Origin: a virus
DNA: 64,000 nt
Strand: one strand, 5' to 3'
IMG/VR virus record: IMGVR_UViG_3300020079_000009
A program made the translations under genes and the position numbers. The notes beneath the pieces were generated by a model. It was given only the letters and a program-made list of their open reading frames with translations, made no database searches and was not told the origin of the DNA. Positions 15,786 to 33,099 of the stretch are shown here, piece by piece. How positions within the stretch are numbered: position 1 is the first letter of the stretch; every line of letters starts with the position of its first letter.

Positions 15786-17525
15786 TTAATTCATAAAGCA
15801 CCAGTCTTTAGCATTGAATTTCTTTTTACGTTTCTTATTTTCTTCTACTTGTTTAATATAGTATAATCCATATTCAAAAGCGGAGAATTTATCCTTGCGG
15901 ATACCTTTGTTCGCTTGTTTCAAAATAATGTTTACGCCTTCATTTTCTTCTCGTAAGTTCATCATTTCCTCTTTTAATATGGAAGTTAGGGTAAATGGTT
16001 TTAAATATTCTGCCCTTTCCTCAGGTTTCATATTCTGACCAACCTTGGTGCCAAGCAACTTAGTCTTAGCAACACGCTCGTCAATAAGAAGTTTAACTTT
16101 ACCAGAAGATAACTGAGCTTGCGCATTTGCATGTGCTTCTGTATTGATTGGCGCATTTGCTTTAATCAAATACATAGCATCTTGTTCGGTAATGTTGGTC
16201 TTATACTTTTTATAGTATAACTCATCATCATTATAAACACCAAAGTCAGGATACGTATCTCCTGTATTTGGGTCAATCTGAGATTTAATCATATAGTCGA
16301 CCAAACCAATACCAAGACCATTGGCGTCGATTACGACTCTACGAGCTTTATACTTGTAGAACAGTTTCTTGATACGAATCGCTTGGTCTTCAAAGTGTTC
16401 ATCAGAGAATGTATAAATATTTACCAATGATTTGTATGCCGCACCCATTGATTGTGGGGTTACTTTAAATACACATACTACAGAATCACATCCCTTACGA
16501 CCAACGTCAACAGACAATACATAGAAAGCCTGCGCACTTGAGCGTCCAGAATGTTCCAATTCAGGTTTCTGTAAGTTGCGGTTTCTATCAAAGATTTCTC
16601 CATTGAAGAAAGCGTCAGCTACAGTACCAGTCCATTTTGATTCATACTCACGGTCGAAAGAAGCTTCATTGAAGGTTCCGTCCTTTTTCAGGTCTTGCAG
16701 GAAGTTTTTATCCAGCAACTTCATTAAAACAGGAATTCTCCAAGTTCCGCCCATTACCATTGCCTTGTGAGGCTCAGTAATCATCCAAACCAAGAGCTGT
16801 ATCAATTTATCATATGCAAATGTGTTTTTAAATCCGGCAGTAGTTACATAAATCTGCGACTTATTCAAAGTCTCATCAGGTTGAGTTGTGCCATCCATAC
16901 ACAAACGAGAAACGTTCATGGTAGGAATAATAACCTGAGAAAGAATATCGCCGTCAACACCAACGCACTCCTCTACGAGACCGCCATGTCGACGCTTACC
17001 TCTCGACTTCTCGGACGCCGCAATATTATCGAAATAAGAGCCATTTTTGAATACATAACAAACATAGTCCTTACCTTCACGCGTCTTACCCGGTCGGCGG
17101 TCAAGTTCTCGGTCAAAGGCCGGAACCAGCGTGCAAATTTCTGTAACTTTTTCTTTTACGATACCTGCAGCCTGCTCTTTACCACCAGAAGTAACGAATA
17201 ATTTACTACGTGGATATAAGATACAACGGCACATCAGTACCATAACAGATAAGAATGATTTTGAATACGCACGAGGGAACACCATGTATACATATTTGTA
17301 ACGCATAGCCGCACGCAAAAATACTCGTTGATAGAAGAAAAACTTTAATTTCCTTTCCTTTGTAGGGTCTCCGCCATCTTGGAGAAAATCAATGAACATG
17401 TCTGGATATTCGCGCCAATAGGCAATATATTGGCGCACCGCAGGCTTAATAGCTTCGATACGCTCTTCAGATAGTCCAATTTTCTTTCTCTTGGTAGAGA
17501 GGTCTAATAGGTCTTGAAGAGCCAT
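15786..17525 (-). CDS. terL: terminase large subunit
   Basis: 579-aa ORF. N-terminal ATPase Walker-A-like MVFPRAYSKSF. C-terminal RNase-H-like nuclease motifs VLSVDVGRKGCD and VVIDANGLGIGL typical of TerL. Confidence 0.8.
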   Translation of the reverse strand: MALQDLLDLSTKRKKIGLSEERIEAIKPAVRQYIAYWREYPDMFIDFLQDGGDPTKERKLKFFFYQRVFLRAAMRYKYVYMVFPRAYSKSFLSVMVLMCRCILYPRSKLFVTSGGKEQAAGIVKEKVTEICTLVPAFDRELDRRPGKTREGKDYVCYVFKNGSYFDNIAASEKSRGKRRHGGLVEECVGVDGDILSQVIIPTMNVSRLCMDGTTQPDETLNKSQIYVTTAGFKNTFAYDKLIQLLVWMITEPHKAMVMGGTWRIPVLMKLLDKNFLQDLKKDGTFNEASFDREYESKWTGTVADAFFNGEIFDRNRNLQKPELEHSGRSSAQAFYVLSVDVGRKGCDSVVCVFKVTPQSMGAAYKSLVNIYTFSDEHFEDQAIRIKKLFYKYKARRVVIDANGLGIGLVDYMIKSQIDPNTGDTYPDFGVYNDDELYYKKYKTNITEQDAMYLIKANAPINTEAHANAQAQLSSGKVKLLIDERVAKTKLLGTKVGQNMKPEERAEYLKPFTLTSILKEEMMNLREENEGVNIILKQANKGIRKDKFSAFEYGLYYIKQVEENKKRKKKFNAKDWCFMN

Positions 17526-18800: not shown

Positions 18801-19853
18801 TTATGACTTTTTGCCCTTTGAATTTCTGCAACATTTGCAAATAGAGTAAAAACCATCTTTGCTGGTCTTATTCTTAGAGAAGTATTTATTATGAGCAAGT
18901 TTAATTTGCCCGCATCGAGAGCATCTCTTGTACTTACCTTTTTCCTCATTGAGGAAATACCAATCTAAATATTCATCCTCGGCCGCAGAAGCTATCAAAC
19001 TTGGAATCTTCTTGCGCCAGAGGCTACTAATATACTCAAGAGAATGAGTAATACCAAATTCATCTTTCAGAATCTCTTGAATCTGAACATTTTGGAGTCC
19101 ATCAATTTTACATTCAACAATTCGCTCATAAAGTGGATAATCTGCTAATGCTTTTGTAGCAATATTGTCAAAGTCCTCCATTAAATACCAAGTGTTCGAA
19201 TCAAAGACTCCCCAACTGTCTTGTTTTAATCTTGAATAGTTACATAGGATGGCTTCGCATACTTTTGGGTCCACCAAAGTAACTCCTTTAGAAACGCAAT
19301 ACCCATTTTCATCTAAAGTAATTTCGCCATCCAATTGAATTGGATTTCTGCCATGCATTACTTTATTTAAAACAATTGGTTTGCGGAAAGCATCTTTAAC
19401 CAAGTACTGGTCCTTACGCAATTCAATAATAGCCTTTTTGGCAATGAAAGCGTCTCGACCTGTCGCTTTCTTCAAGATATTTTCCCAAACCTGAATGGCC
19501 TCTCTAATTTGCTGTAACTCTGGGATTTCTTCTAAATCTTTCTTTGTGATTGAAACTTTAGGTCTAAAAATTTGATTCTTGTCTTCTGTTATTAATCCAT
19601 AAATACCATCTTCGCCATTTTCAAATTGGGAAACAAGACCTTCAAAAGACGTTTCGCGCTTTGTAACTGTAGCCATACGGTTTTCAGTTAAAATCTTGCG
19701 CTCCTTTTTCTCTTGTTTCTCCATGCAGAGGATTAGGTAATCAGCGAGAATTTCCAGGTATTTATCACCTGGGTCTGGATTCTCTGCGAGAATCTTCTCA
19801 ACCAATGCCTTTCGCTCTTCTGGAGTTGTTAAACTGTAATCTAATTTAATCAT
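18801..19853 (-). CDS. hypothetical protein with C-terminal Cys-rich zinc finger (first gene of the leftward operon)
   Basis: 350-aa ORF directly downstream of minus-strand promoter TTGACT-17-TGGTATAAT. Confidence 0.3.
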   Translation of the reverse strand: MIKLDYSLTTPEERKALVEKILAENPDPGDKYLEILADYLILCMEKQEKKERKILTENRMATVTKRETSFEGLVSQFENGEDGIYGLITEDKNQIFRPKVSITKKDLEEIPELQQIREAIQVWENILKKATGRDAFIAKKAIIELRKDQYLVKDAFRKPIVLNKVMHGRNPIQLDGEITLDENGYCVSKGVTLVDPKVCEAILCNYSRLKQDSWGVFDSNTWYLMEDFDNIATKALADYPLYERIVECKIDGLQNVQIQEILKDEFGITHSLEYISSLWRKKIPSLIASAAEDEYLDWYFLNEEKGKYKRCSRCGQIKLAHNKYFSKNKTSKDGFYSICKCCRNSKGKKS

Positions 19854-20336: not shown

Positions 20337-20545
20337 TCTTGTGGGGAGTTATTTCCACAATTACATTTATTCCACATATGCCTGCATGCAAAGAGCTTAG
20401 CAGCGCAGATAAATTTACAGTTATGGTCATATTTTTAATCGGAGGGCCATTTTTTGCAATATCTAATATTCTTGAAGAATTATTAAATTGCATTATGCCA
20501 CCTGGTTGGGGAGGAGACGACGATGATTTCTTCAACAAATACTAA
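20312..20545 (+). CDS. small two-TM membrane protein
   Basis: 77-aa ORF with two hydrophobic segments and acidic C-terminus GGDDDDFF. Confidence 0.35.
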   Translation: MAGTWIAIILWGVISTITFIPHMPACKELSSADKFTVMVIFLIGGPFFAISNILEELLNCIMPPGWGGDDDDFFNKY

Positions 20546-21380
20546 TTTTGAACTAAAAAATATTAAAGAGTTTTGTGCCGATTGGAAAGCCAGTCTTAAA
20601 GATCGGCTGAGCGGGCAGCGCGCAATCCTTCATATTATTCAAGTTGGTGACAATCCCGCATCAACACGCTATGTTCGCAATAAAGTGAAGGACGCACAGG
20701 AAGTGGGCATCGAAGCGCAGGTTATTCATTTTCCAGAATCAGTAACCCAAGAGACTGTCGAACAATCCATTATTCAAATTGTTCAGACTAATGCTGAAAA
20801 TCCAGCTGGCATTATTGTGCAGTTGCCATTACCAATTCATTTGGATAAAAATAGAATTACAAGACTTATCCCAAGCCGCATGGATGTAGATGGATTTAAG
20901 AATGATAGTCCTTATTTCCCTTGCACTCCTCTTGGTATTATCACATATCTGAAAGCATGCAATTTCAATTTTGAGGGGGCAAATGCGGTAGTAATTGGAC
21001 GTTCTGAGATTGTAGGGAAACCCGTCGCAGAAATGTTGGTAGATTTGAATTGCACAGTTACATTGTGCCATAGTAAAACAAAGAATTTGCATACCTTTAT
21101 TGATAGCGCAGACTTGATAATTTGCGCGGTGGGTAAGGCCGGATTCCTGAACTGCTATCCGATCTACGTACCGGTTATTGATGTAGGTATTAATTTTAAT
21201 GAAGAAGGTAAAATGGTTGGAGACTGTATTAATACCGAGAATAGACTGGTAACCCCAGTTCCGGGTGGAGTTGGTCTTTTAACCAGATGCGCACTCTTGG
21301 AAAATATGGCGGTAGCCAAGCTGTTGTTTGAAAATCCTCGGCTTGACGAGGCGCAAATTCCAATTAAATTAGGAGAATAA
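20523..21380 (+). CDS. folD: bifunctional methylenetetrahydrofolate dehydrogenase/cyclohydrolase
   Basis: Collinear FolD motifs: VGDNPAS..YVRNKVK, VQLPLP, MDVDGF, PCTPLG, VVIGRSEIVGKP, CHSKTKNL, ADLIICAVGK, VIDVGIN, VTPVPGGVG. Confidence 0.9.
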   Translation: MISSTNTNFELKNIKEFCADWKASLKDRLSGQRAILHIIQVGDNPASTRYVRNKVKDAQEVGIEAQVIHFPESVTQETVEQSIIQIVQTNAENPAGIIVQLPLPIHLDKNRITRLIPSRMDVDGFKNDSPYFPCTPLGIITYLKACNFNFEGANAVVIGRSEIVGKPVAEMLVDLNCTVTLCHSKTKNLHTFIDSADLIICAVGKAGFLNCYPIYVPVIDVGINFNEEGKMVGDCINTENRLVTPVPGGVGLLTRCALLENMAVAKLLFENPRLDEAQIPIKLGE

Positions 21381-21382
21381 AA

Positions 21383-21646
21383 ATGAGAATTAGACCAGAA
21401 AACACAACAAGAAAAATTGATGCGCTCGGACGTGTCACGATTCCTAAGGGCTTGCGTGACCGAATGGGACTCCATGAAAATGATGACATGGAATTGTTCA
21501 CAATGGAAAGCGGCGGATGCGAGTACATTTGTTTGCGCTCAGCCCGCATTGAAGCTGATAAATATCGCCTTGCCGCAGAATTGCTCCAAGAATTGAATAT
21601 TGCTGTTCCAGCTGAACTCGCAATCAAGGTTGGGTTGGAGGACTAA
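21383..21646 (+). CDS. AbrB/MazE/SpoVT-type swapped-hairpin DNA-binding regulator
   Basis: N-terminus RKIDALGRVTIPKGLRDRMGL..DDMEL matches the AbrB N-domain consensus (RKVDELGRVVIPIELRRTLGI..D.LEI). Confidence 0.8.
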   Translation: MRIRPENTTRKIDALGRVTIPKGLRDRMGLHENDDMELFTMESGGCEYICLRSARIEADKYRLAAELLQELNIAVPAELAIKVGLED

Positions 21647-21648: not shown

Positions 21649-21987
21649 ATGGCAGGGCGCAATTTAGCAGAACTATTTCATGGAAAAGAAAATGCGATTA
21701 CCGCGCAGAAATTGCGTGAGGGTCGCAGTTGTTTGGTAACTGGGTATGGACAAAGCATGACTCCCATTTTGGAGAGTGGAGATAGTGTTATTTGTATTCC
21801 TGTAACCGAGGATACGAAATTGCATAAGAATGATATTGTTCTATGTAGAGTGGGTGGGCATTACTACCTGCACAAGATAGTAGCTATTAAGAATGGAAAT
21901 CGGTATACGATTGGAAACAACCATGGACACATTAATGGCACTATTGGGCGAAACAATATTTTTGGAGTCGCCGTAGAAAGAGTTTAG
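21649..21987 (+). CDS. standalone S24 (LexA/CI-like) serine peptidase domain protein
   Basis: GQSMTPIL (Ser nucleophile in a GxSM context), GDSVI, and downstream LHKIV (candidate Lys of the Ser-Lys dyad). Starts 2 nt after the AbrB-like gene stop. Confidence 0.65.
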   Translation: MAGRNLAELFHGKENAITAQKLREGRSCLVTGYGQSMTPILESGDSVICIPVTEDTKLHKNDIVLCRVGGHYYLHKIVAIKNGNRYTIGNNHGHINGTIGRNNIFGVAVERV

Positions 21988-22397
21988 AAAGATTGGGTTC
22001 CGTACCATTCGGTATGGGACCCATTTCTTATTTTTCCCGTAAACCGAAATCTGAAATTGATTTAGTGGGAGGTTTGTCCAGGAAATAACATTTCATCAAC
22101 AATAAAAAAAAATTTTCCCGAAATACACCCCCCCGGGTATGTTGGCATACACAGCACAGGCACACACACAGACAGAGAGGTACGCCCCTCTCTACGCCCT
22201 ACAGAGCTACGCACATGTACATACAAAGAGATACATACACAATGACCAAGAGGTAATGAGTACATAACACATACACATCTATCTATACATACAACAATAG
22301 ATAATAATAATAAATAATAAACAACACAATGATGTACATACTAATACATACGCTGGGCCGTGCATGGATGGCGCGGCCCTGGTTGGCATGGTATACA

Positions 22398-22468
22398 TCT
22401 TGCACAAATAAAGGGCGCAACAATTGTGCAAATCTACCTATTGACAAACCTCCCGAAACGTGTTATAC
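22398..22468 (+). promoter_or_regulatory. class-3 promoter (TTGACA-17-TATACT) with upstream inverted repeat TGCACAA-N16-TTGTGCA (candidate operator)
   Basis: cTTGCACAAataaagggcgcaacaaTTGTGCAAatctacctaTTGACAaacctcccgaaacgtgtTATACT. Confidence 0.55.
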
Positions 22469-22503
22469 TAAGGGTACAACAAAGGAAGAGAGAGGTACAC
22501 ACA

Positions 22504-22839
22504 ATGAAACACATCAGCACAATCTACGTAGTAAGAAACAATGAGACACACAGACACACCTACTATACTAAGGAATGCGCACCTGCTGAAGCAAGACCTA
22601 TGCTTTACCACACAAGCAAGACTATCAACGTACACCAAGAGGATGGCACAGTGCGCACAGCATACATGTACGGAGAGAAGAGCTACAGCTACGACGCAAC
22701 AGAGGTAGCACAGTACAAAGAAGCACAAGCAGCTAAGAGACAGAGAGAAGCAGAGAGAAAGGCTATGCTTGCTACTATCATGACACACTATGAGGCAATG
22801 GATACTGAGGCACTGGCTAAGGTAATAGCTACTCTGTAA
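22504..22839 (+). CDS. hypothetical protein (within the T-depleted compositional island)
   Basis: Promoter TTGACA-17-TATACT at 22440-22468, RBS GAGAGAGG, ATG 22504. Coding strand almost devoid of T at many codon positions. Confidence 0.4.
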   Translation: MKHISTIYVVRNNETHRHTYYTKECAPAEARPMLYHTSKTINVHQEDGTVRTAYMYGEKSYSYDATEVAQYKEAQAAKRQREAERKAMLATIMTHYEAMDTEALAKVIATL

Positions 22840-22996
22840 GGGTAGCTACCGTGTGCGGCCCTGCTATCCCTAACTGCCACAGAGCCAGGAGGCACAGAAA
22901 AAAGTCTGCACAAACGTGTAAAAAAAGCTTGACACAAACCTCCTGTAATGGTATAATAAAGATACAAAGAAAGAAGTAAAGAAAGAGGTAGATACA

Positions 22997-23287
22997 ATGA
23001 GTAAGAGAGTAACAGAGATGATGACTATACTGTTGGTAGTAGTAGTGTTCATGGGCATGCTGGGGCTGTGCGGCTACGTAGAGACACACTACACACGCAA
23101 GGACTGCGTAGTAGTACACACAGAAGGACAGCTTGCAGAGGTAGAGGACAAGCAAGGACATGTGTGGTGCTATGAGGTAGAGGGCACAGCACCAAGCGTA
23201 GGCACAGTGGTAGATGTACACATGTACACAGCACACACTGATGGATACATCTATGATGATGAGGTAGTAGGAGTAAGCACACACTAA
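22997..23287 (+). CDS. small membrane protein
   Basis: Promoter cTTGACAcaaacctcctgtaatggTATAAT at 22929-22957, RBS GAGGT, hydrophobic N-terminus. Confidence 0.4.
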   Translation: MSKRVTEMMTILLVVVVFMGMLGLCGYVETHYTRKDCVVVHTEGQLAEVEDKQGHVWCYEVEGTAPSVGTVVDVHMYTAHTDGYIYDDEVVGVSTH

Positions 23288-23517
23288 TGCAGTGTGTGCT
23301 ACTACACACTACTACTAATACTACACTAATACAGAAAGACCGCCATAGGCGCGCGCACGGTCCTGGCGCGCCTGATTGGTGCTATTGTAAAACCTGCACA
23401 AAAAAGGCTTGCAAAATCGGCGTAAATTTGTGTAAAATAAATCTCCCAAAACCCTTGACAAAATACCTGCGCGCATGGTATACTATAGATACAAAGAAAG
23501 AGAGAGAGGTACAACCT

Positions 23518-23772
23518 ATGAACACTTATACTATCTACATTAACAACAACGCTATCGCTACTATTAGTGGTACTGAAGCTTGCTATGCTTGCTACGAAGC
23601 AGCTAAGACCATCGCAGAGATGACTTGCCAGACTGCTTCCCTTGTGTGGGATGAAACTGGCGAAGTAGTAGCCTTCTACGACCCTGAGGAAGAGGACTAC
23701 GAAGAGCCTGCTGACATTGATGACGATTTTGGCTTTGACCCTTACGAAGGATGTTACACTTATGATTGCTAA
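23518..23772 (+). CDS. small acidic Cys-containing protein
   Basis: Promoter at 23456-23486 (TTGACA...TGGTATACT), RBS GAGAGGT, ATG 23518; 84 aa. Confidence 0.4.
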   Translation: MNTYTIYINNNAIATISGTEACYACYEAAKTIAEMTCQTASLVWDETGEVVAFYDPEEEDYEEPADIDDDFGFDPYEGCYTYDC

Positions 23773-23860
23773 AAAAAAATTAAAAAAGGGGCTTGACAAA
23801 AAGCCCCCTCCATGTTATAATAAAGATACAAAAAAGGAAAACAAAAGGAGACTGATAACT

Positions 23861-24286
23861 ATGATGTGTGCAAGTGAACTGGCAATTGTGAGAAATGCAA
23901 GCGTAATGAAGTGGGAAAAAGAAAAGGCAGAAAGTCTTGCTCGTCTGTTGGGTGCGAGTGTTGAATTCTGTGAAACTGAGATTGGACCTGCCCTTGAGAA
24001 GCAGGCTCTCAACCCTAAGGGTGGACTGATTTCAACTTCTATTGACCTCGCTATGGCTTCCGATGCTTACGGCAACGAGGTACTGCGTCCTATTCGTTTC
24101 GATGGCAAGAAGTATGCAAATGGAGATTGGAGTTATTCTCCTTGCACTGACAAGAACTATCACAAGACTTTCATTGAAGAGTATCTTGCTCAGCATTGTC
24201 TGTCTGTAAGGTGGGAAGAAACTACTTACAATCGCTATGGTTTTGGCTCTTGCCGAGCTTACAAACTGATTGTTGAAGTAAAGTAA
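23861..24286 (+). CDS. hypothetical protein
   Basis: Class-1 promoter at 23794-23821 with -35 inside the GGGGCTT...AAGCCCC hairpin; RBS AAGGAG; ATG 23861. Confidence 0.45.
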   Translation: MMCASELAIVRNASVMKWEKEKAESLARLLGASVEFCETEIGPALEKQALNPKGGLISTSIDLAMASDAYGNEVLRPIRFDGKKYANGDWSYSPCTDKNYHKTFIEEYLAQHCLSVRWEETTYNRYGFGSCRAYKLIVEVK

Positions 24287-24365
24287 AAAAATGCAAAAAG
24301 GGGTTGACAAACTCAACCCCTTGTGCTATAATAATTACAGAAAGAAACAGAAAGAAGTGGTAAAA

Positions 24366-24698
24366 ATGGCTTACGGATGTTATTCAGAAGTGTATTACGC
24401 AGAACATTTAGAAATTAGAACGGCAATCAAAATTGGGGAAACGACTAATGCAAGGCGTAGAAGTAATCAGTTGCTCCAAGAAGATTATTTAATTCTTCAA
24501 TCATTAGACATTGGCGGCGGAGAATGCGAAAGGCTATTTGTAGAAAGTTTTTTGCGAATGAAAATTCTAAAAACACAAAAGGCTCGGCGCATTCGCAAAG
24601 ATTATTTTAATTGCGCTGATCTTGATACAGTAGAATTTATTAAATCTCACTTTCAAGAGTGGGTAATGGAAGCAATAACAACAATGAGGGGAATGTAA
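24366..24698 (+). CDS. T5orf172/GIY-YIG-like domain protein (putative)
   Basis: Motif IKIGETTNARRRSNQL resembles the KIGxT...R..QL core of the T5orf172 (GIY-YIG-related) domain. Class-1 promoter at 24304-24332. Confidence 0.4.
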   Translation: MAYGCYSEVYYAEHLEIRTAIKIGETTNARRRSNQLLQEDYLILQSLDIGGGECERLFVESFLRMKILKTQKARRIRKDYFNCADLDTVEFIKSHFQEWVMEAITTMRGM

Positions 24699-24770
24699 AA
24701 ATTCCCCTTGACAATCAATTAAAATTATGGTATAATAATAATACAAAGAAAAGAAAAGGAGATAGATACA

Positions 24771-24980
24771 ATGGGTGAAGGTTGTTTGATGGTAATTCTC
24801 GCGCTGGCACTGGTGTTCGGCGTTGTGTGTTTCGAGGCATGGATTGGGATGCTTCTGTTTAACTGGGTGATGAGCCTGTTCGGCTGTGCGTTTGCTCTAA
24901 CATTTTGGCAGGCTTTCGGCATCTGCGCTCTGCTCAGTTTTGTAGGTGGCTTTTTCAAATCGAGTTCCAAGAGCAATTAA
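24771..24980 (+). CDS. small hydrophobic membrane protein
   Basis: 69-aa, two TM segments; class-1 promoter at 24709-24739; followed by intrinsic terminator 24983-25011. Confidence 0.45.
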   Translation: MGEGCLMVILALALVFGVVCFEAWIGMLLFNWVMSLFGCAFALTFWQAFGICALLSFVGGFFKSSSKSN

Positions 24981-25011
24981 GGAGAGGGGAAACCCTCTCT
25001 TTTTATTTTTT

Positions 25012-25130
25012 CGGCCGCGCGCTGTCGGCTGTGGCGCGCGGTGTTTCTGCCAAGAGGTAATCTGCACAAAAATCTCGTGGAAAATTTGTGCAATTTTGTG
25101 CTTGACAAACATCCCGAAATGGTGTATACT
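25012..25130 (+). promoter_or_regulatory. class-3 module: GC-rich hairpin (25012-25041) + operator TGCACAA(25063)-N16-TTGTGCA(25092) + promoter TTGACA(25102)-17-TATACT(25130)
   Basis: Coordinates worked out by hand; the half-site TTGTGCA is repeated a third time right before the -35. Confidence 0.55.
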
Positions 25131-25160
25131 TAAGGTACAAAAGATGAGGGGGTAATAACT

Positions 25161-25343
25161 ATGATGATGAACATTACTATTGACAGACCTTGGAGCGAAC
25201 AGCCTGAGGAAGTACGCAACGCAATCGACGAACAGACTTACAACAAGGTTGCTGAGGTTCTCGGCATTAAGTTGGTAAGTCGCAAAAAATGGTACGAAAA
25301 GGTATTGACAAACATCTCAAAGTATGGTATACTTAGAGCATGA
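25161..25343 (+). CDS. small hypothetical protein (3' end overlaps the next promoter)
   Basis: Class-3 promoter at 25102-25130, RBS GAGGGGG. C-terminal codons ...EKVLTNISKYGILRA are encoded by a TTGACA-17-TATACT promoter. Confidence 0.35.
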   Translation: MMMNITIDRPWSEQPEEVRNAIDEQTYNKVAEVLGIKLVSRKKWYEKVLTNISKYGILRA

Positions 25344-25359
25344 AAGGGGGATACTAAAG

Positions 25360-25683
25360 ATGAAACCTATGAATACTACATTCCACGCAGGAGTGGAACG
25401 AGCAAACCGACTGCAAGCATTGGAAGAAGTTCTCGGCTTCACAAACCCTGTGCTTGAAGTTGAAGTAATTGAAGAAGAAAAGAGGTACTTGCTAACCAGT
25501 AGTGGAATTATCATTGTTAAGAATTTGTATCGTGACATTGTGATAACTGCATTTATGGCAAATGTCAATCAGTGCTATCGTCTTTACAGAATGGCGGGCA
25601 AGGGGCAGATGTCACCTAAAATGGAAAAGCGAGTAATGAAAAATTGTCAAAGACATCCAGAATTATTTACGATTAGGGGTTGA
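25360..25683 (+). CDS. hypothetical protein
   Basis: RBS AAAGGGGGA, ATG 25360 (MKPMNTTFH...). Confidence 0.4.
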   Translation: MKPMNTTFHAGVERANRLQALEEVLGFTNPVLEVEVIEEEKRYLLTSSGIIIVKNLYRDIVITAFMANVNQCYRLYRMAGKGQMSPKMEKRVMKNCQRHPELFTIRG

Positions 25684-25741
25684 CAAAACCCCTAAGCCGT
25701 GGTATAATAATTACAGAAACCAAGAGAGAGGAATTGATACT

Positions 25742-26155
25742 ATGAAGAAATTAGTAAACCTTAGATGCTATGCGGCAATCGGCAATGATGACTACTGCGA
25801 CACTTCCATTTGGAATCACATTCGCTATGTGGAAGTTGGCGAGTGTAACACGACAGAATACACACTCGAAACCTTTGAAGAAGCATTTGCGGCAGTTCGT
25901 GACCACAGAATCAGAAATGCAGAAACTGGTTGCACTCTATTTCGCAATCGTCCGACCATCGAAATTGGTTGGGGCGACTTCTACAGAAACAAAAGCAAAA
26001 TGACAGAAAAGACTTTCAAGCCCATTCGTGTCAGGTGGGAATGGGAAGAGGTTACAAGAATGTACACAATGAAAGACCTTGCGGACTTGCTCCCTGCTGA
26101 ACAGTTCTGCGAATGGTTGAAAGACAGAGGGATTACAATGGTTGGCTCGATGTGA
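25742..26155 (+). CDS. hypothetical protein
   Basis: Class-1 promoter at 25680-25708, RBS GAGAGGAATTGATACTATG. Confidence 0.45.
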   Translation: MKKLVNLRCYAAIGNDDYCDTSIWNHIRYVEVGECNTTEYTLETFEEAFAAVRDHRIRNAETGCTLFRNRPTIEIGWGDFYRNKSKMTEKTFKPIRVRWEWEEVTRMYTMKDLADLLPAEQFCEWLKDRGITMVGSM

Positions 26156-26262
26156 GCCAACCGCCCGTACAAAATAAATTAAAAAAGTTTTGAAAAACCT
26201 ATTGACAAACCCACGAACCTATGTTATAATAAATACAGAAATTGAGAGAGGAATTGATAACA

Positions 26263-26937
26263 ATGAACAAGAAAATTATTTACTGCACACTTGATACTGA
26301 AACTGTTGGCGGAGCTTCTAATCCTACTGGAATGTACAACCTCGGTTGCACTATCCACGACAGAGAGGGCAACATTTTCGCAACCGCTTCTCTGCTTGTA
26401 ATGGAACACTATGACGAAATCGCACAGGACGATTACGCAAAGAAGAACTTCCCTATCTATCGCGAAAGACTGATGACTGGCGAAATGTCTGCGGTGGCTA
26501 CCGAAGCCGAAGCACTTTCCATCGTTCGCAACCTTTGCAAGTTCTATGGTGTTCGCTATGTAATGGCTTACAACTCTGCTTTCGACTTTACCAAGACTAT
26601 TTGCAGAGAACTGCTCGACGAGTTTGAGTTCATCGACATTTACTTGATGGCTTTGCAGACCATCTGCCACAAGAAAGGCTTTGCGAACTTCTGCCACGAG
26701 AATGGCTTCCAGTCCTCTTCCAAGAAGTCTTGCTCTACTACTGCACAGACTGTCTATGGCTTCATCACTGGAAATGCTGACTACATCGAAGAACACACTG
26801 CACTGGCTGACGCACTCATCGAAATGGAAATCTTTGTGGCTTGTCTGAAAATGCACAAGAAATTCAACAAGAACATTCACCAGTGGGACGCAAAGGGCAG
26901 AGAGTACAACAAGTGCTTTCCGAAGTGGGTGGACTAA
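26263..26937 (+). CDS. DEDDh 3'-5' exonuclease (DnaQ/RNase T-like) paralog 1
   Basis: Exo motifs YCTLDTETVG (Exo I D-x-E), AYNSAFDF (Exo II), HTALADALIEMEIF (Exo III with His). Class-1 promoter at 26203-26230. Confidence 0.7.
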   Translation: MNKKIIYCTLDTETVGGASNPTGMYNLGCTIHDREGNIFATASLLVMEHYDEIAQDDYAKKNFPIYRERLMTGEMSAVATEAEALSIVRNLCKFYGVRYVMAYNSAFDFTKTICRELLDEFEFIDIYLMALQTICHKKGFANFCHENGFQSSSKKSCSTTAQTVYGFITGNADYIEEHTALADALIEMEIFVACLKMHKKFNKNIHQWDAKGREYNKCFPKWVD

Positions 26938-27048
26938 GTCCCCCACTTTCCCCGGTCAAAAAAAATAAAAAACTTTTCAAAAACCTATTGACAAACACGA
27001 AAATCCATGCTATAATTAAGATACAAAAAAGGAAAGGAAGTAAACACA

Positions 27049-27498
27049 ATGAAGACTATGAACATCACAATCAACTTTGACATGGACGGCACAATCGCTG
27101 ACCTCTATGGAGTAGAAAACTGGCTCGAATACCTCATCGCAGGCGACACATTCCCTTACGCAAACGCAAAGCCTCTGCTTAGACTTGCAACTCTCGCTCG
27201 CAGACTTAACACTCTCCAGAGAAATGGCTACAACATCGCAGTTATCTCTTGGCTGAGCAAGAGTGGCACAGAAGAATACAACAGAGCAGTTACCGAAGTC
27301 AAAATGGATTGGCTCAAGAAACATCTGCCAAGTGTCAACTGGAACGAAATCCACATTGTACCTTACGGCACACCAAAGCAGAACTTCTGCAAAACTCCTC
27401 TCGATGTGCTTTTCGATGATGAAGAACGCAACAGAACAAACTGGACTGGCAAGGCTTATGATGTGCAGAACATCTTGGAAATTCTCGCAGAAATGTGA
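27049..27498 (+). CDS. HAD-superfamily 5'(3')-deoxyribonucleotidase-like hydrolase
   Basis: N-terminal HAD motif I FDMDGTIADLYG (DxDGT) and overall NT5C-like size; class-1 promoter at 26988-27016. Confidence 0.6.
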   Translation: MKTMNITINFDMDGTIADLYGVENWLEYLIAGDTFPYANAKPLLRLATLARRLNTLQRNGYNIAVISWLSKSGTEEYNRAVTEVKMDWLKKHLPSVNWNEIHIVPYGTPKQNFCKTPLDVLFDDEERNRTNWTGKAYDVQNILEILAEM

Positions 27499-27571
27499 GA
27501 ATTTCCCCTTGACATTTTCAAACCGTTGTGCTATAATTTAATTACACCAAGAGGAAAGGAACTGATACCCC

Positions 27572-27790
27572 ATGATGATTAACACGAATGAACCCACTTG
27601 CCCCACTTGCGGCGGCTCCCTCATTTCTATCTCACACTACGATGTTGAAGACCTCGACACAGGCACAATCGCAATGAGCGTGGTCGGTGGCTGTGACCAC
27701 TGTGGCAACACCTATGAATGGGTTGAGTATTACGCCTACAAGGGTCACGCAGACATCAAGCCCACCCAAATCAGGGCGAGAGCAATTTGA
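27572..27790 (+). CDS. small zinc-ribbon protein
   Basis: CPTCGG...CDHCGN pairs; class-1-like promoter at 27505-27535; terminator at 27776-27805. Confidence 0.45.
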   Translation: MMINTNEPTCPTCGGSLISISHYDVEDLDTGTIAMSVVGGCDHCGNTYEWVEYYAYKGHADIKPTQIRARAI

Positions 27791-27805
27791 CGCTCTCGCC
27801 TTTTT

Positions 27806-27958
27806 GGCGCGCCGCCCACGACCCAGGCGGCACGAATTTCCATTATAACACTTCCTCAGCATTTTGTCAATAGGCAATTTGCACAAAGTTGCGAGAGGTC
27901 AAATTCCTGAAATTTGTGCATTTTGACTATTGACTTCTATTGGGGAGTGTGTTATACT
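27806..27958 (+). promoter_or_regulatory. class-3 module with divergent promoters: GC hairpin 27806-27834; antisense promoter (minus strand) -35 at 27865-27870 and -10 at 27842-27847; operator TGCACAA(27880)-N27-TTGTGCA(27920); sense promoter TTGACT(27930)-17-TATACT(27958)
   Basis: Reverse complement reads cctaTTGACAaaatgctgaggaagtgtTATAATgg, a perfect class-1 promoter firing leftward into the GC hairpin and the preceding gene terminator. Confidence 0.5.
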
Positions 27959-27964
27959 GTACTT

Positions 27965-28055
27965 ACAGATGAGGGGTGAGGTTTAATGCTGAGCCGCTCA
28001 AGCAGAAAGGGTTCAAACCCCTTGGGGGACGCCCCTAAAAGCCCCTCATCTTTTT
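27965..28055 (+). ncRNA. candidate ~90-nt small RNA (or leader with tiny ORF) from the class-3 promoter, enclosed by a long-range stem GATGAGGGG...CCCCTCATC plus U5 terminator
   Basis: The gene-less transcript begins GTCAG-type conserved start, has internal hairpins, and ends in a T-run at 28051-28055; only an in-frame run-on ORF (27986) with no independent support. Confidence 0.35.
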
Positions 28056-28144
28056 CAAAAAAAATAAAAAAAGTGCTTGACAAACGGTCAATGCGGTGCT
28101 ATAATAAAGATACAAAGAACGGAACAGAAAAGGAGACAGGAACA

Positions 28145-28633
28145 ATGACTAAGGGAAACGCAATCAGATACTACAGAAAGTTTAGTGGCGCACAGGGTTA
28201 CATCCTCGGTTTCACTTACAAGAAGAAGAACTACATGGCAATCGTTGATGAAATCATGCCTCGCTTCATTCGAGTAGAAAAAGAAGCAAGCAAAAAGGGT
28301 GGCAAGGAAAAGCTTCAGCTTCGACTGACTAATCAGCACATGGAACAGCTCATTCGCAAGGGCGCAATCGAAATCGACTACGAAGTAACCAACGGCAACA
28401 ACGGCAGAAACTTTGAAATGTGGGTACAGAGATACTTCGGTCAGGTCGCAAGAGATTGGGATAATGACGGCTTTTGGGTTGGTGGTGATGTCAATGTGAA
28501 CGGCATTGAGTATCAAATCAAATTCAACGGCGCACAGATTGTCACTTTCGACACTCTCCACAATTTGCAGAAGTGTGGCAAGGACTACAAAAACTATGTG
28601 CCTAAGCGTGGCAGAAAGAAAAAAGTTGCCTAA
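28145..28633 (+). CDS. hypothetical protein (162 aa)
   Basis: Class-1 promoter at 28078-28106, RBS AAAAGGAGA, ATG 28145 (MTKGNAIRYY...). Confidence 0.45.
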   Translation: MTKGNAIRYYRKFSGAQGYILGFTYKKKNYMAIVDEIMPRFIRVEKEASKKGGKEKLQLRLTNQHMEQLIRKGAIEIDYEVTNGNNGRNFEMWVQRYFGQVARDWDNDGFWVGGDVNVNGIEYQIKFNGAQIVTFDTLHNLQKCGKDYKNYVPKRGRKKKVA

Positions 28634-28687
28634 GGGGGTTGACAAACCCCCAAAGGTATGCTATAATAATACCAAGAGGTGAGATAA

Positions 28688-28849
28688 ATGAAAAAGAAGA
28701 AAACCATTGACAATCGCATTTTTAAGAAAGAGGGCGAAGAACTGCAACAGTATTTGCACTTTCGCAAGCGTGGGTCGGTAGTCGAGAACAAAAAGGGCAA
28801 AGGCTCGTACAATAGAAAAAAGTTCAAGAAAATTGAAAAAGACTATTGA
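28688..28849 (+). CDS. small lysine-rich protein (53 aa); 3' end overlaps the next promoter
   Basis: Promoter gGTTGACAaacccccaaaggtatgcTATAAT, RBS GAGGTGAG, ATG 28688. Not in the ORF track (<60 aa). Confidence 0.3.
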   Translation: MKKKKTIDNRIFKKEGEELQQYLHFRKRGSVVENKKGKGSYNRKKFKKIEKDY

Positions 28850-28907
28850 CAATTAAATAAAAATGTGGTATAATAATTATAGAAAATAAAGAAAAGAGGT
28901 TGTTACT

Positions 28908-29153
28908 ATGAAAATGTTTTCCGAAATGAGTTTGAAATCTATCCGCAACAAGTTGGCAAAGGTTGGGGTCACAATGAGTGACGAGCAGTTCAATGCTCTT
29001 ACCTACTCCGAGTTGAAGAAAGTCTATCGCAAGGCGAGCAAGGCTTACAAACTCTATGAGCAGGTTGATGCAATCATCACCAAAGCACAAGCTCCCACTC
29101 CGCAGATGCCCTTGACCAATGACAGTCCCAAGAGCGTAAGCGCAAAAAAGTAA
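28908..29153 (+). CDS. hypothetical protein (81 aa)
   Basis: Class-1 promoter at 28846-28875, RBS AAGAGGT. Confidence 0.4.
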   Translation: MKMFSEMSLKSIRNKLAKVGVTMSDEQFNALTYSELKKVYRKASKAYKLYEQVDAIITKAQAPTPQMPLTNDSPKSVSAKK

Positions 29154-29228
29154 AAAATGGGGGTTGACAAACCCCCAAACCTATGCTATAATACAAGTAC
29201 AAACCAAAAGAAAAGGAGAATGATACTA

Positions 29229-29381
29229 TGAGTATTCGAGAAGTAGCAAATGCACTGAATGAGATTCGCGCAAACATGAGCAACCCCGAAGGTATGGTGG
29301 TTGCGTCCATCACAAAGGACGAAGTCATTTTTGAGAATGGGGTTGCCTATTCGCTGACAACGAAGCAGAGAACGCGATAAG
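29229..29381 (+). CDS. small hypothetical protein (50 aa)
   Basis: Class-1 promoter at 29165-29192, RBS AAAGGAGA, ATG 29229; terminator at 29385-29412. Confidence 0.3.
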
Positions 29382-29429
29382 GAAGAGCGAGGGGAAACCC
29401 TCGCTTTTTCCATTTCAAAATCCAAAATG

Positions 29430-29590
29430 CATCGGCCGGTCCACGTGCGCGCGGACCGGTGTTTTGGCCTAACCTTCCATTATAACATTTTTCGAGCAAT
29501 TTGTCAATAGGCAAAATGCACAAAGATTTTCCTGTAATTTTGTGCAATTTGCCACTTGTATTTTGGTGGCTGATGTGGTATACTATTATT
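29430..29590 (+). promoter_or_regulatory. class-3 module (GC hairpin CCGGTCC..GGACCGG, antisense promoter, operator TGCACAA-N16-TTGTGCA, TGGTATACT promoter) not followed by a gene
   Basis: Same architecture as 27806-27958; downstream transcript ATTATTGTCAGTAAGGGAGAG... has no ORF before the next class-1 promoter. Confidence 0.5.
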
Positions 29591-29639
29591 GTCAGTAAGG
29601 GAGAGAACAAAATCCCATCAAAAAGATTTTGAAAAAACC

Positions 29640-29870
29640 TATTGACAAAATAAAAAAATTATGTTATAATTATTATAGAAAAAAGGAAAAAGCCATTACC
29701 AAAAAATTTCTAAAAAAGTTTTGAAAAAGGTATTGACAAATCCTAAAGAGTATGCTATAATAGTTATACAAGGTAAGGGAAAACCTACTGAGAGGTCAAC
29801 AAAAAAAATAAAAAAAAAGTTGAAAAAACCTCTTGACAAACAACTCCCAATGTGCTATAATAAGAATGTA
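29640..29870 (+). promoter_or_regulatory. three tandem class-1 promoters (TTGACAAA-N16/17-TGnTATAAT) separated by <60 nt with no intervening ORFs, upstream of paralog A1
   Basis: ttgacaaaataaaaaaattatgtTATAAT; ttgacaaatcctaaagagtatgcTATAAT; ttgacaaacaactcccaatgtgcTATAAT. Each is preceded by an AAAAAAGTTTTGAAAAAACC(T/C) UP-like element. Confidence 0.55.
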
Positions 29871-29937
29871 AAGAGGGACACCTCTTACAGAATAAAAACT
29901 TGGGTCGTGACCTACCACGAGATTGGAGATTGATACT

Positions 29938-30297
29938 ATGGCAAACACTAAGAAGATGACTAAGCGTGAGATGTTCGAGCAGATTAAGGCTTCCTACCCT
30001 CTGACTGAGGCTGAGGTTGAGTTCATTGACCACGAACTCGAACTGCTCGCAAAGAAGAACAGTGCCGAGAAGAAGCCTACCGCTGTGCAGGTGGCTAATG
30101 AGGGCATTAAGGGCGACATTGTCGCAGGTATGGAGCAGGGTAAGTCCTACACCATCACTGACCTGATGAAGACCATTCCTGCCTGTGCCGAACTGAGCAA
30201 CCAGCGTGTGTCTGCTCTTGTTCGTCAGCTCGTCACTGATGGCGTGGTTGTGCGAACTGAGGAAAAGCGTAAGGCTTATTTCTCCCTCGCTGACTAA
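29938..30297 (+). CDS. winged-helix-like protein, paralog A1 of a triplicated family
   Basis: MANTKKMTKREMFEQIK... is ~75-80% identical to the products of 33663..34022 and 34524..34883. C-terminal TITDLMK..LSNQRVSALVRQLVTDG..RTEEKRKAYFS resembles a winged HTH. Confidence 0.6.
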   Translation: MANTKKMTKREMFEQIKASYPLTEAEVEFIDHELELLAKKNSAEKKPTAVQVANEGIKGDIVAGMEQGKSYTITDLMKTIPACAELSNQRVSALVRQLVTDGVVVRTEEKRKAYFSLAD

Positions 30298-30385
30298 GGG
30301 AAAAAAGTCAAGGGGAAATGCAAATTTCCCCTTGACAACCCCTTTGATGTGTGGTATAATGTAATTACAGAAAGGGGGATTGCCT

Positions 30386-30766
30386 ATGACAGCATCCGAG
30401 AGAGAAAAACTGATTGCCAAGCACATGGGTCTGTTAGGTATCAGCCGAGAGGAAGCCGAACAGTTGGTCGCTGATGATGAAGCAATCGACAAGGGAGCAA
30501 AACTCTTTGAGTTGAGTGCCGAGCAAGAAAAGGCAAGCAAAAAGGCAAGAGCCATTGGAACAAAGACCACCACCACAACCAAGACCACAACCAAGAGAGA
30601 ACGCAAAGCCGACAACGACAAGGCAATGCTGATTGACGAAATCAAGCAAGCCCTTGAGGGATTGGAAAGCATTGAGGGAATTGAGGTTACGAACGCCGAG
30701 AGGGAAATGCTTTTCCACTGCAATGGGCGAAAGTTTAAGGTGGTACTGTCTGCCCCTCGTTCCTAA
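30386..30766 (+). CDS. partner protein B1 (paralog of 35007..35375)
   Basis: MTASEREKLIAKHMGLLGISREEAEQLVADDEAIDKG... aligns with ..LMKNLGISEEEALQVIADDKAIDRG.. Thr/Lys-rich linker. Confidence 0.5.
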   Translation: MTASEREKLIAKHMGLLGISREEAEQLVADDEAIDKGAKLFELSAEQEKASKKARAIGTKTTTTTKTTTKRERKADNDKAMLIDEIKQALEGLESIEGIEVTNAEREMLFHCNGRKFKVVLSAPRS

Positions 30767-30789
30767 CTTGTCAATGGGCGAAAGTCACA

Positions 30790-30970
30790 AACTTTCGCCC
30801 TAATTTTTGTGCATTTTTACCACTTGACAAATCGGGCCGGCTGTGGTATAATGGCCGCCCGTGCACAAGTGCGCGGGCCGGTATTCCTGTCAATAGTTAA
30901 TTTCAACAAAAATGCGGGCGAAAATTTGTGCAAATTGCCTATTGCAAAATCTCCCGAAACGTGGTATACT
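30790..30970 (+). promoter_or_regulatory. class-3 module with two promoters (TTGACA..TGGTATAAT inside a GGCCGGC hairpin, then TTGCAA-17-TATACT) and TGCACAA motifs
   Basis: cacTTGACAaatcgggccggctgtggTATAATggccgcccgTGCACAAgtgcgcgggccgg ... aaaatTTGTGCAaattgcctaTTGCAAaatctcccgaaacgtggTATACT. Confidence 0.5.
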
Positions 30971-30994
30971 AATAATGTCAGGAGGGATAGAACG

Positions 30995-31240
30995 ATGTTA
31001 GAACTGAACCAAGAGGAAAAGAAAGTAATCGAAAAGGTAGTTGACGGAATGACAGAATGCGGTCTGTTCTGCGGTCGGTACGATGCAAAGAATGGCAATG
31101 AGCATTTCATGTATGGGGTGAGCACTGTAATGGAATACCTCGCCTATCTTGTCAGCGATGAGTATGGGGATGAGTTCTCCGATGCTTTTACAAAAAATAT
31201 GATAAAAAGTGAAAAAAAGGTATTGACAAACGAGCATTGA
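30995..31240 (+). CDS. hypothetical protein (81 aa); C-terminus overlaps next promoter (..KKVLTNEH)
   Basis: Class-3 promoter at 30937-30970, RBS GGAGGGA, ATG 30995. Confidence 0.45.
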   Translation: MLELNQEEKKVIEKVVDGMTECGLFCGRYDAKNGNEHFMYGVSTVMEYLAYLVSDEYGDEFSDAFTKNMIKSEKKVLTNEH

Positions 31241-31283
31241 TGTGCTATAATAATTACAGAAAGAAACGAAAGAGGTAAACGCT

Positions 31284-31757: not shown

Positions 31758-31863
31758 TGGGTCAGCTTTTCGCCCGGGCGCAAAATATTTTTCAAAAACC
31801 TATTGACAAATCAAAATGAAAGTGCTATAATAATTACAGTTGATACGAAAGGATTTGATACCC

Positions 31864-32601: not shown

Positions 32602-32659
32602 CAAAAGCCCTCCCCCATGGTATAATGAATACAGAAATTAAGGAAAGAGGTTGATACTA

Positions 32660-32818
32660 TGTTAGAACTTATTTGTCAAATTCCTGACCACATCGGTTGG
32701 GTGCTCGTTGGTGTTGTTGGCTGTCTGTGTGTGCAGATGCTTGGTCTGTTGATTGGTACTACCATCCAGGCAATCAAGGAACGAATTGAAGACCGCAACG
32801 AGGAATGCGAGGGTTAAT
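32660..32818 (+). CDS. small membrane peptide (52 aa)
   Basis: Promoter TTGACAaaagccctcccccatggTATAAT, RBS AAAGAGGT; hydrophobic core; terminator 32806-32832. Confidence 0.3.
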
Positions 32819-32844
32819 CCCTCGCTTTTTTGTTTGAGATTTCA

Positions 32845-33000: not shown

Positions 33001-33099
33001 ATGTCAGGTGAGGGGAGCACCCAAGAGGAGCTCAAAAAAACTTTGAAAAAAGTTAAAAAACCTCTTGACAAATAGCGCCGAGTGTGCTATAATAAATAC

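Follow-up and report, generated by a model that had tools for sequence, protein, structure and literature searches.

A T-depleted, CA-rich island maintained at silent sites in a large uncultivated phage

Here we analyse a stretch of 64,000 nucleotides (the window) of IMG/VR virus record IMGVR_UViG_3300020079_000009, which comes from a large, uncultivated tailed phage of gut or rumen, related to SPbeta and phAss-1, with a probable host among Clostridia. Between positions 22140 and 23335 the top (+) strand becomes poor in T and rich in CA across a non-coding spacer and two small genes, called g1 (22504-22839) and g2 (22997-23287). This island is real, statistically strong and evolutionarily maintained, and is no recent import. 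The bias is present in both protein and DNA, and the part of it that lies at silent sites is decisive. We tentatively favour, with a probability of about 0.4, the reading that the composition belongs to the resident genome and is maintained by sense-strand selection, at the RNA level, against pyrimidine tracts, U-runs and structure, and that the island opens a multi-promoter, 'host-takeover-like' early array as its first, immediate-early cassette. The island is best seen as an extension of known themes: early-gene arrays, purine loading and codon differences between early and late genes.

Base composition of the island

Over 22140-23335 T falls to 0.183, the minimum of all 1196-nt sliding windows (mean 0.295, z ~ -2.7), and it drops to 0.125 in 200-nt windows. 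The A-T skew reaches the maximum of the whole window here (0.42 at 22501-23000, in 500-nt windows). ACA is found 93 times, compared to 17.4±7.9 per equal-sized window elsewhere (maximum 45, z = 9.6). The island also holds 26 of the 61 copies of ACACA in the window, where 1.1 are expected, and 2 copies of TGTGT. A preliminary description of this DNA had reported a strand-asymmetric, T-depleted and CA-rich island; the sliding windows confirm the island, and several details of that description need correction.

Low T by itself recurs across the early region. Patches as poor in T or poorer lie at 30.4-30.6, 33.2-33.5 and 35.0-35.2 kb, a 1.2-kb window at 33.0 kb has a T content of 0.194, and the early region as a whole stands at 0.237 versus 0.295. 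The neighbours of the island had been described as simply A/T-rich, which does not fit a region that is already T-poor. What is specific to the island is its CA-richness and its avoidance of pyrimidine tracts. AC, CA and TA are doubled, and TT (0.15x), TC (0.33x), CG (0.55x), CC (0.56x) and AA (0.68x) are depleted. Pyrimidine-pyrimidine steps amount to 0.10 in the island compared to 0.21-0.24 elsewhere, and pyrimidine runs of at least 4 fall to 8.4 per kb compared to 27-33, with none in g2; the frequency of purine runs does not change. A single TTT is found where 26 are expected. The rule is one of isolated pyrimidines, with T nearly always before a purine and with ACA, CAC, TAC, GTA and CTA favoured. 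Avoidance of T-containing motifs, as suggested earlier, is roughly right in that it holds for TT, TC and pyrimidine runs, with no specific target motif emerging.

The loss of pyrimidine runs with retention of purine runs, together with the 26 copies of ACACA against 2 of TGTGT, excludes strand-neutral properties of the DNA as the main cause. Whichever strand they come from, early transcripts have little U when read in their own sense (0.223 and 0.225), which ties the trend to transcription and not to replication. Accordingly, we reject a mutational bias of the replication strands, as U-poverty follows the sense on both strands and the 1.2-kb island has sharp borders. Transcription-coupled C-to-T deamination is also rejected, since it would enrich the sense strand in T, whereas T is depleted there.

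Two long open reading frames (ORFs) on the opposite strand (22468-22788 and 22829-23284) had been considered spurious, and we agree. The depletion of TTA and TCA (complementary to TAA and TGA) extends to all three phases and is not limited to one frame. Real antisense genes are rejected, as no frame is specifically preserved and the long frame is of low complexity.

A composition of this kind could also result from evasion of defence, with the purging of T-rich protospacer-adjacent motifs of CRISPR systems (TTC, TCN, TTTV), of restriction sites or of U/A-tract RNase motifs. The strand-symmetrised depletion of TCG/CGA (0.06x), TTC/GAA (0.29x) and AAA/TTT (0.33x) agrees with this, and the genome does respond to restriction pressure: CTAG is absent from the 64 kb (~92 expected) and GATC occurs 21 times (~179 expected, 0.12 of expectation). 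But the main signal is strand-asymmetric, and DNA-targeting systems read both strands. Four-base palindromes are found 55 times in the island compared to 46 expected, with GTAC, CATG, ACGT and the longer ACATGT enriched, so that a general avoidance of restriction palindromes is rejected. Moreover, the motif sets were picked after the fact, and the enrichment of ACA, GTA and CTA is left unexplained. We consider evasion of defence improbable.

Codon choice and its conservation in relatives

We recoded g1 and g2 by keeping the proteins and drawing codons from the usage of the other early genes. Compared to these recodings, T is depleted (z = -3.1 for g1 and -4.5 for g2) and ACA enriched (z = +3.9 and +5.3). 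In the two genes together, GTA makes up 84% of the valine codons (21% in early genes, 28% in late genes), ACA makes up 65% of the threonine codons, and GTT, GGT, ATT and TCN codons are absent. T at third codon positions (T3) is 0.18 in g1, which contains 6.9 ACA per 100 nt, and 0.11 in g2, where 16 of 19 valines are GTA. A distinctive codon preference had been attributed to three genes. It stands for g1 and g2, whose codons are used unlike those of either early or late genes, and fails for the third gene, g3 (23518-23772), which has a T3 of 0.40 and 2.4 ACA per 100 nt and lies outside the compositional island. T3 of the late and right-hand genes is ~0.42-0.48.

The base that follows a codon influences which synonym is used. 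Within the g2 family, two-fold codons ending in a pyrimidine (NNY) take T in 77% of cases before G and in 7-11% before T or C, and four-fold codons end in A in ~80% of cases before G or C. For Lys, Glu and Gln the family uses the G-ending codon, avoiding AA. The other early genes hold to this rule in part, with T in 48% of cases before T or C. A choice that depends on the following base means that the rule acts at the level of nucleotides and not of tRNAs.

This dependence also bears on ordinary translational selection, according to which g1 and g2 would be tuned to the tRNA pool of host or phage by avoiding T-ending wobble codons. Early genes as a class do prefer C-ending two-fold codons (TAC 58%, CAC 77%) and late genes T-ending ones, and the phage has tRNA genes. 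Codon-usage differences between early and late phage genes are documented (PMC5683454). However, the C-or-T choice is set by the following base, and the g2 family makes ample use of the usually rare ATA (45% of Ile), of GAT (65% of Asp) and of AGT (42% of Ser). Late genes, including those for virion proteins, use the opposite set (GTT 58%, ACT 52%, GGT 49%), and the flanking non-coding DNA has the same composition as the genes. Translational selection is thus quite unlikely.

Relatives of g1 and g2 were recovered from metagenome assemblies only; searches of IMG/VR with g1, g2 and a g2 alignment found none. Across 26 g2 orthologues (43-88% amino acid identity, most above 54%), T3 generally falls within 0.11-0.23 and at most reaches 0.30, GTA accounts for 78% of Val, ACA for 81% of Thr and GTT for 2%, whereas the other ORFs at these loci have a T3 of 0.20-0.39. 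The bias is kept down to ~55% protein identity and fades only below ~40%. As relatives keep the bias at silent codon positions, it looks selected rather than imported. It is also not merely a historical composition, which should have decayed over such divergence, next to neighbours without the bias.

The comparison with one metagenome relative, L005, points the same way. The synonymous codons of g2 are 0.88 identical, the highest of 18 genes, at an amino acid identity of 0.76, which is among the most diverged. By comparison, the large terminase (TerL) has a synonymous identity of 0.77 at an amino acid identity of 0.99. This suggests diversifying protein evolution of g2 over a nucleotide-level constraint. 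The constraint is not a conserved RNA structure, which we reject as the cause of the silent-site conservation: RNAalifold on g2 finds no conserved structure (-19.7 kcal/mol, covariation +0.05). Taken with the silent-site bias and the next-base dependence, the synonymous identity supports the earlier suggestion of an unusual selection pressure.

The other origin put forward in the preliminary description, a horizontally acquired moron carrying the composition of its donor, fares badly. Composition and codon usage are sharply unlike those of early and late genes, each gene has its own promoter (22441-22469 and 22929-22957), and only some of the relatives have g1. These are moron-like properties, but presence and absence is not coupled to signs of foreign origin. 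g2 is found at the same position throughout the clade, g1 alone being variable, and its bias is kept over long divergence. Promoters, operator and ribosome-binding sites come from resident families. The island also obeys the genome's avoidance of CTAG (0 compared to 6.3 expected) and GATC (none). Neither Pfam nor PHROGs gives a match, IMG/VR holds no homologue of g1 or g2, and no donor was found. We regard acquisition as a moron as very improbable.

The cassette, its spacer and the molecule under selection

The cassette runs in the order control blocks, CA-rich spacer and GC hairpin, operator, TATACT promoter, g1, TATAAT promoter and g2. Its features, all on the + strand, are as follows.

21994-22023, +: intrinsic terminator with a 13-bp stem and T-run, closing the operon of FolD, AbrB-like and S24-like genes
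22030-22103, +: conserved non-coding blocks 1 and 2, TTTTCCCGTAA..CCGAAATC-N7-GATTT..GTGGGAGGTTTG
22104-22137, +: block 3, A9 T4 CCCGAAATACACCCCCCC, a single-copy conserved cis element
22139-22267, +: 42-codon ORF with an ATG start, probably non-coding, less probably a short translated leader
22140-22354, +: CA-rich, T- and G-poor spacer ('leader') with decayed short repeats of CA, TACA and ATA/AATAA
22355-22379, +: GC-rich hairpin, GGGCCGTGC-N7-GCGCGGCCC, without U-tract
22400-22431, +: palindromic operator, TTGCACAA-N16-TTGTGCAA, immediately 5' of the -35 element
22441-22469, +: class-B sigma-A promoter of g1, TTGACA-N17-TATACT, with TCCCGAAA in its spacer
22504-22839, +: g1, a 111-aa orphan with five beta-strands and a long helix, the position-1 gene
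22929-22957, +: class-A sigma-A promoter of g2, TTGACA-N17-TGgTATAAT
22997-23287, +: g2, 96 aa, an N-terminal membrane helix and an OB-like beta-barrel
23276-23300, +: hairpin across the g2 stop codon, AGCACACACT-N5-AGTGTGTGCT, a perfect 10-bp inverted repeat
23299-23332, +: simple repeat, (CTA)n / CTACTAATACTA, of 12.3 copies with period 3 according to Tandem Repeats Finder, where the island ends on the right
23348-23372, +: second GC hairpin, GGCGCGC-N11-GCGCGCC, followed by an operator-like sequence
23455-23484, +: g3 promoter, TTGACA-N18-TATACT
23518-23772, +: g3, outside the compositional island

TATACT promoters had been proposed for the island. Those at 22441-22469 and 23455-23484 exist, and the promoter of g2 is instead of the TATAAT type. 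The ~200 nt before g1 had also been taken to be free of ORFs, when in fact they contain the 42-codon frame, which begins MLAYTAQAHTQTERYAPLY at a conserved GGTATGTTGG motif. Its product is not conserved in the sequences of relatives, as judged by eye. Some relatives have shorter ORFs from the same ATG, with only a 'QTER' stretch in common.

g1 and g2 are real genes, a conclusion that rests on their homologues and on confidently predicted folds. Homologues of g1 form nine protein clusters of 56-100% identity, and its AlphaFold2 (AF2) model has a predicted local distance difference test score (pLDDT) of 88, with no match in a fold search against PDB. For g2 there are 88 homologues and a pLDDT of 91, and its fold search gives weak matches to OB (oligonucleotide/oligosaccharide-binding) folds (IF1, RPA, TSST-1) at E values of at least 0.03. 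Scans of Pfam and PHROGs with g1, g2 and g3 gave no match.

In relatives, the locus follows the order AbrB-like gene, blocks, spacer, hairpin, operator, promoter, position-1 gene, g2 and g3. Blocks 1 and 2 are conserved at the nucleotide level in >15 related loci, compared side by side, and block 3 (A9T4CCCGAAATACACCCCCCC) recurs in 19 related metagenome loci. Its core, the 20-mer TTTTCCCGAAATACACCCCC (22113-22132), occurs once in each of 29 IMG/VR contigs (L075-L103) of 4.8-402 kb, most of them >85 kb; in every case a C>G spacer comes next, and then a GC hairpin, the palindromic operator and a promoter. This essential-looking element is a candidate regulator site, weak promoter or terminus-proximal site. 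A fixed -35/-10 promoter in block 3 is not supported, since its distance to the GGTATGTT motif varies by ~28 nt among relatives. Contig ends near block 3 are scattered among the assemblies.

The spacer that follows (A 0.41, C 0.26, G 0.14, T 0.19; 12.6 ACA per 100 nt) is conserved in form and not in sequence. In ~15 relatives its length (~195-260 nt), composition (C/G 1.4-2.1, A ~0.4) and terminal GC hairpin are kept, and its primary sequence is not. Instead, relatives carry unrelated (CA)n, (TACA)n, (GTA)n and (ATA)n repeats, with the CA-rich orientation always on the sense strand. In relatives L023 and L024 a gene of ~35-38 aa and a second CA-rich stretch replace g1, and in L019, L022, L025 and L026 CA-rich sequence (8.7-17 ACA per 100 nt) is found at position 1 in place of g1.

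The spacer of ~215 nt and its hairpin might constitute a non-coding RNA or RNA-level control element in their own right. It could be a Rho-loading or termination zone that insulates the regulated promoter of g1, or it could act as a sponge or decoy, titrating a host factor that binds single-stranded RNA or a toxin that cuts at ACA/UAC; the g1 and g2 mRNAs, saturated with ACA, may extend this role. The conserved length, composition and 3' hairpin would agree with this, as would a C/G ratio in the top 0.5-3% of + strand windows and a lack of structure (minimum free energy (MFE) of -0.14 kcal/nt). The hairpin exists in 16 distinct variants, two of which show changes on both sides of the inner stem, as judged by eye. 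In the wider family that has block 3, a different hairpin with a T-run occupies the same place; this terminator-like sequence implies a transcript end there and hints that the spacer is transcribed.

On the other hand, the region upstream has no convincing promoter, and the spacing between block 3 and GGTATGTT varies by ~28 nt among relatives. The spacer counts as absent in relatives L011, where it is 63 nt long and not CA-rich, and L015, and in the wider family it is C>G but not CA-rich. An Rfam search of the window brings only tRNAs to the gathering score, and within 21900-23900 gives only chance-level matches (E 0.12 and 0.47) far below it, so no Rfam family is assigned. The primary binding site of Rho needs YC (pyrimidine-C) dimers, and these number 3-9 per 100 nt in the spacer compared to a mean of 8.1, at or below average. 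The likeness to rut sites of Rho-dependent terminators is thus partial. More than 80 nt of unstructured, C-rich and G-poor sequence with conserved composition precede a hairpin that could be a pause site, whereas YC dimers are scarce (TC 0.33x, CC 0.56x) and the spacer looks A-rich and T-poor rather than simply C>G. Overall, we hold an independent RNA element to be unlikely.

A small chance remains for a more specific form of this proposal, in which the spacer RNA, extended by the g1 and g2 mRNAs and made at DNA entry, would be a decoy for a host RNA-recognising factor (Rho, Hfq, an RNase or an ACA/UAC-cutting toxin of the MazF/PemK type), making the composition an anti-host or anti-defence device. 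TACAT is found 9 times in 22130-23330, compared to 70 times in the whole window, but these UACAU sites are not conserved in relatives, as judged by eye, and a MazF-type UACAU decoy is rejected.

Short repeats raise a further alternative. Slippage- or recombination-prone CA/TACA/GTA microrepeats at a cassette-exchange junction could generate a functionless composition, with g1 and g2 biased because they were born in, or exchange with, repeat DNA. Short tandem duplications are found in and around the genes (AGACACAC x2, ATGTACAC x2, (AAT)n and (CTA)n), and 10 of 59 alternating purine-pyrimidine tracts of at least 10 nt fall in the island. Spacers are wholly different between relatives, and the position-1 gene is swapped (g1, the ~35-aa gene, others). 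Nevertheless, slippage cannot hold scattered silent sites, with GTA at 78% of Val and next-base rules, across ~26 orthologues, and the fixed sense orientation of CA (ACACA 26, TGTGT 2) is not strand-neutral. Four independent assemblies of this phage do not differ over 1.9 kb and thus show no polymorphism in length. The repeat arrays are short and decayed and vary between lineages rather than within one, and the locus does not behave as a phase-variable or contingency locus. Simple-sequence dynamics account for the spacers and the exchange of cassettes, and as an explanation of the island they are doubtful but credible.

We infer instead that RNA would be the molecule under selection. The first transcripts, made by the host RNA polymerase, might be kept without U-tracts and so escape intrinsic termination or U-dependent pausing. 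Keeping them without pyrimidine tracts would likewise remove sequences that could pair with, and hide, the purine-rich ribosome-binding leaders, or that could recruit pyrimidine-tract-binding factors. The transcripts would also stay free of stable secondary structure. As an outcome, complete transcription and translation of g1 and g2 would follow immediately on DNA entry. Under this constraint, slippage of short CA/TACA/GTA units could then give rise to the fast-changing non-coding spacers. In line with low structure, no early segments are less structured than g1 mRNA (MFE -0.161 kcal/nt) and the spacer, and 98% of synonymous recodings of g1 are more structured than its actual mRNA.

Several observations weigh against such RNA-level selection in an immediate-early cassette. 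The structure of g2 mRNA is ordinary (-0.293 kcal/nt, z = 1.5 compared to recodings). g3 also lies behind a TATACT promoter and has no bias, so that 'immediate-early' status alone does not explain it. Upstream of the spacer at 22140-22354 is a strong terminator and downstream of it the g1 promoter, and block 3 yielded no convincing promoter. In L005 the bias of g1 is weaker (T3 0.24, ACA 0 of 8 Thr, synonymous identity 0.61), as it is in a further relative, L008. Finally, the g2 orthologues are phylogenetically related, and their counts are not independent.

The composition of the sense strand has several known parallels. Purine loading (Szybalski's rule) likewise gives sense strands with A>T that are U-poor along transcription on both strands, and phages use different codon sets early and late (PMC5683454). 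The island differs from both in going far beyond the average of its class, in its next-base rule, in the C-richness of its spacers, and in the near elimination of pyrimidine runs from one cassette, conserved at silent sites.

A/C-rich sequence that cannot fold is also familiar from translation enhancers. The CAA region of tobacco mosaic virus omega is an A/C-rich unstructured enhancer, and CA-repeat enhancers were reportedly described by Martin-Farmer and Janssen in 1999. Such sequence is likewise found near the start codons here, where g1 begins ATGAAACACATCAGCACAATC, and g1 is the least structured early gene. The composition here, however, extends over whole genes and 200-nt spacers and not over a short element.

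If true, this would be a natural case of nucleotide-level selection acting on whole phage genes and spacers through silent sites and next-base rules, other than via protein or tRNA supply, and conserved in a widespread family of uncultivated phages (contigs up to ~200 kb) of gut and rumen Clostridia. It would offer a way to study what protects or favours the earliest transcripts in an infection, and synthetic expression cassettes could be designed to follow the same rule of isolated pyrimidines and no U-runs. The analysis also charts the regulation of the early array, with its ~45 promoters of two classes, its palindromic operator and the 20-mer present in single copy, all unannotated in the references searched.

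The early promoter array and the phage around it

The island stands at the left end of an early array of ~15 kb (22.4-36.8 kb), in which dense small genes have nearly each their own promoter. TTGACA-N17-TATAMT with at most 1 mismatch matches 46 times in the window, compared to 1.1 expected, and ~40 of these matches lie within the array. In total, ~45 near-consensus sigma-A promoters are found on both strands of 22400-36800, about one per 350 bp. The TATACT and TATAAT types are two families spread over the array. Promoters of class A combine an A/T-rich upstream element with TTGACAAA-N-TGnTATAAT, and those of class B (~9 copies) end in TATACT, contain TCCCGAAA in their spacer and lie just after the palindrome TGCACAAA-N-TTTGTGCA. 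This operator is repeated 5' of ~9 TATACT promoters (families D12, D14, D16 and D19) and conserved in relatives, and it is likely to be the site of a phage regulator, for example the AbrB-like protein encoded upstream. The ribosome-binding leaders of the early genes are conserved and extremely purine-rich.

The array resembles the host-takeover module of Bacillus phage SPO1, likewise a Firmicute phage, reportedly described by Stewart et al. in 1998 with its early genes in the terminal redundancy. Both consist of dense, small, mostly orphan genes in one direction, and nearly each gene has a strong sigma-A early promoter and a strong ribosome-binding (Shine-Dalgarno) site. There is no sequence homology between the two, and here ~45 promoters fall in two classes, one of them operator-controlled. 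We know of no sense-strand CA-rich, pyrimidine-tract-free cassette in SPO1. A second likeness is to PeSLs, said to have been described by Arbiol et al. in 2010 as 'mobile regulatory cassettes' in hyperplastic regions of T4-type phages. PeSLs are likewise repeated units of early promoter and stem-loop around small variable ORFs, with the gene at a position (here position 1) swapped among relatives. They belong to another phage lineage with another promoter sequence and are conserved repeats, whereas the spacers here change fast and only composition is conserved.

Among the hairpins of the cassette, the terminator at 21994-22023 recurs as the same hairpin in relatives, and the second GC hairpin (23348-23372) is conserved downstream of g2, both as judged by eye. 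The hairpins after g2 have no U-tracts, and no terminator-like site was found on the + strand in 22024-24978.

In several places of the array, consensus promoters, some of them in tandem, are followed by T-poor stretches without an obvious ORF or by GC hairpins (29642-29861, 30824-30970, 33065-33560, 34345-34472 and 36374-36700). We consider these to be candidate small RNAs or long leaders. Many class-A promoters lie within hairpins (minus-strand sites 23784-23811, 24298-24322, 24687-24708, 29158-29177, 30307-30336 and 32588-32616). Read on the opposite strand they are terminator-like, with the upstream A-tract as T-run, and they may block antisense transcription.

Upstream of the array lie the following genes.

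18801-19853, - strand: sigma-factor-like gene, first of the leftward late genes
20523-21380, 21383-21646 and 21649-21987, + strand: rightward operon of FolD, AbrB/MazE-fold and S24-peptidase-domain proteins

Late genes are transcribed leftwards from 19.85 kb. The FolD protein is of the methylene-tetrahydrofolate dehydrogenase/cyclohydrolase type, and no DNA-binding domain was detected in the S24-peptidase-domain protein. The best matches of FolD are 43% identical (Terrisporobacter) and uninformative as to the host. The large terminase (15786-17525, minus strand) shares 45-50% identity with its counterparts in Enterococcus phages VRE9_4, H1 and EF1, Geobacillus virus E3 and gut phage phAss-1, with an SPbeta-type YonF protein as a more distant match. 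Neighbouring genes encode YonD and YonG domains, and a portal gene is found in the window along with the sigma-factor-like gene. tRNA genes for Gly-UCC (62281-62353) and Asn-GUU (63802-63877) lie at its right end. Contigs of 182-200 kb include the stretch around g1 and are identical to the window across the 1.9 kb compared. Neither megablast of 20-38 kb nor blastn of the control region found a match among 50,697 phage records.

phAss-1 and its kin have been assigned to Clostridia and recode TAG, in phAss-1 to Gln (PMC10607447). In the window the standard genetic code suffices: large ORFs are intact and TAG terminates only 2 of 60 genes. TAG-to-Gln recoding is rejected here, as a frame of 573 codons read with TAG as sense is a low-complexity translation.

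The avoidance of CTAG and GATC probably represents footprints of host restriction systems. GATC avoidance is common to relatives, and total loss of CTAG is restricted to some lineages. At a hairpin-flank position relatives have GGCCCTAG and this phage has GGCCCTGG.

Finally, the array contains three paralogous genes of ~119 aa (29929-30228, 33654-33953 and 34515-34814) that share 70-75% DNA identity, start MANTKKMTKREMFEQIK and have a weak match to a Mnd1-HTH-like domain. Two assemblies of this phage, L002 and L003, end at a point that corresponds to about 30.0 kb of the window, beside the first of these paralogues.

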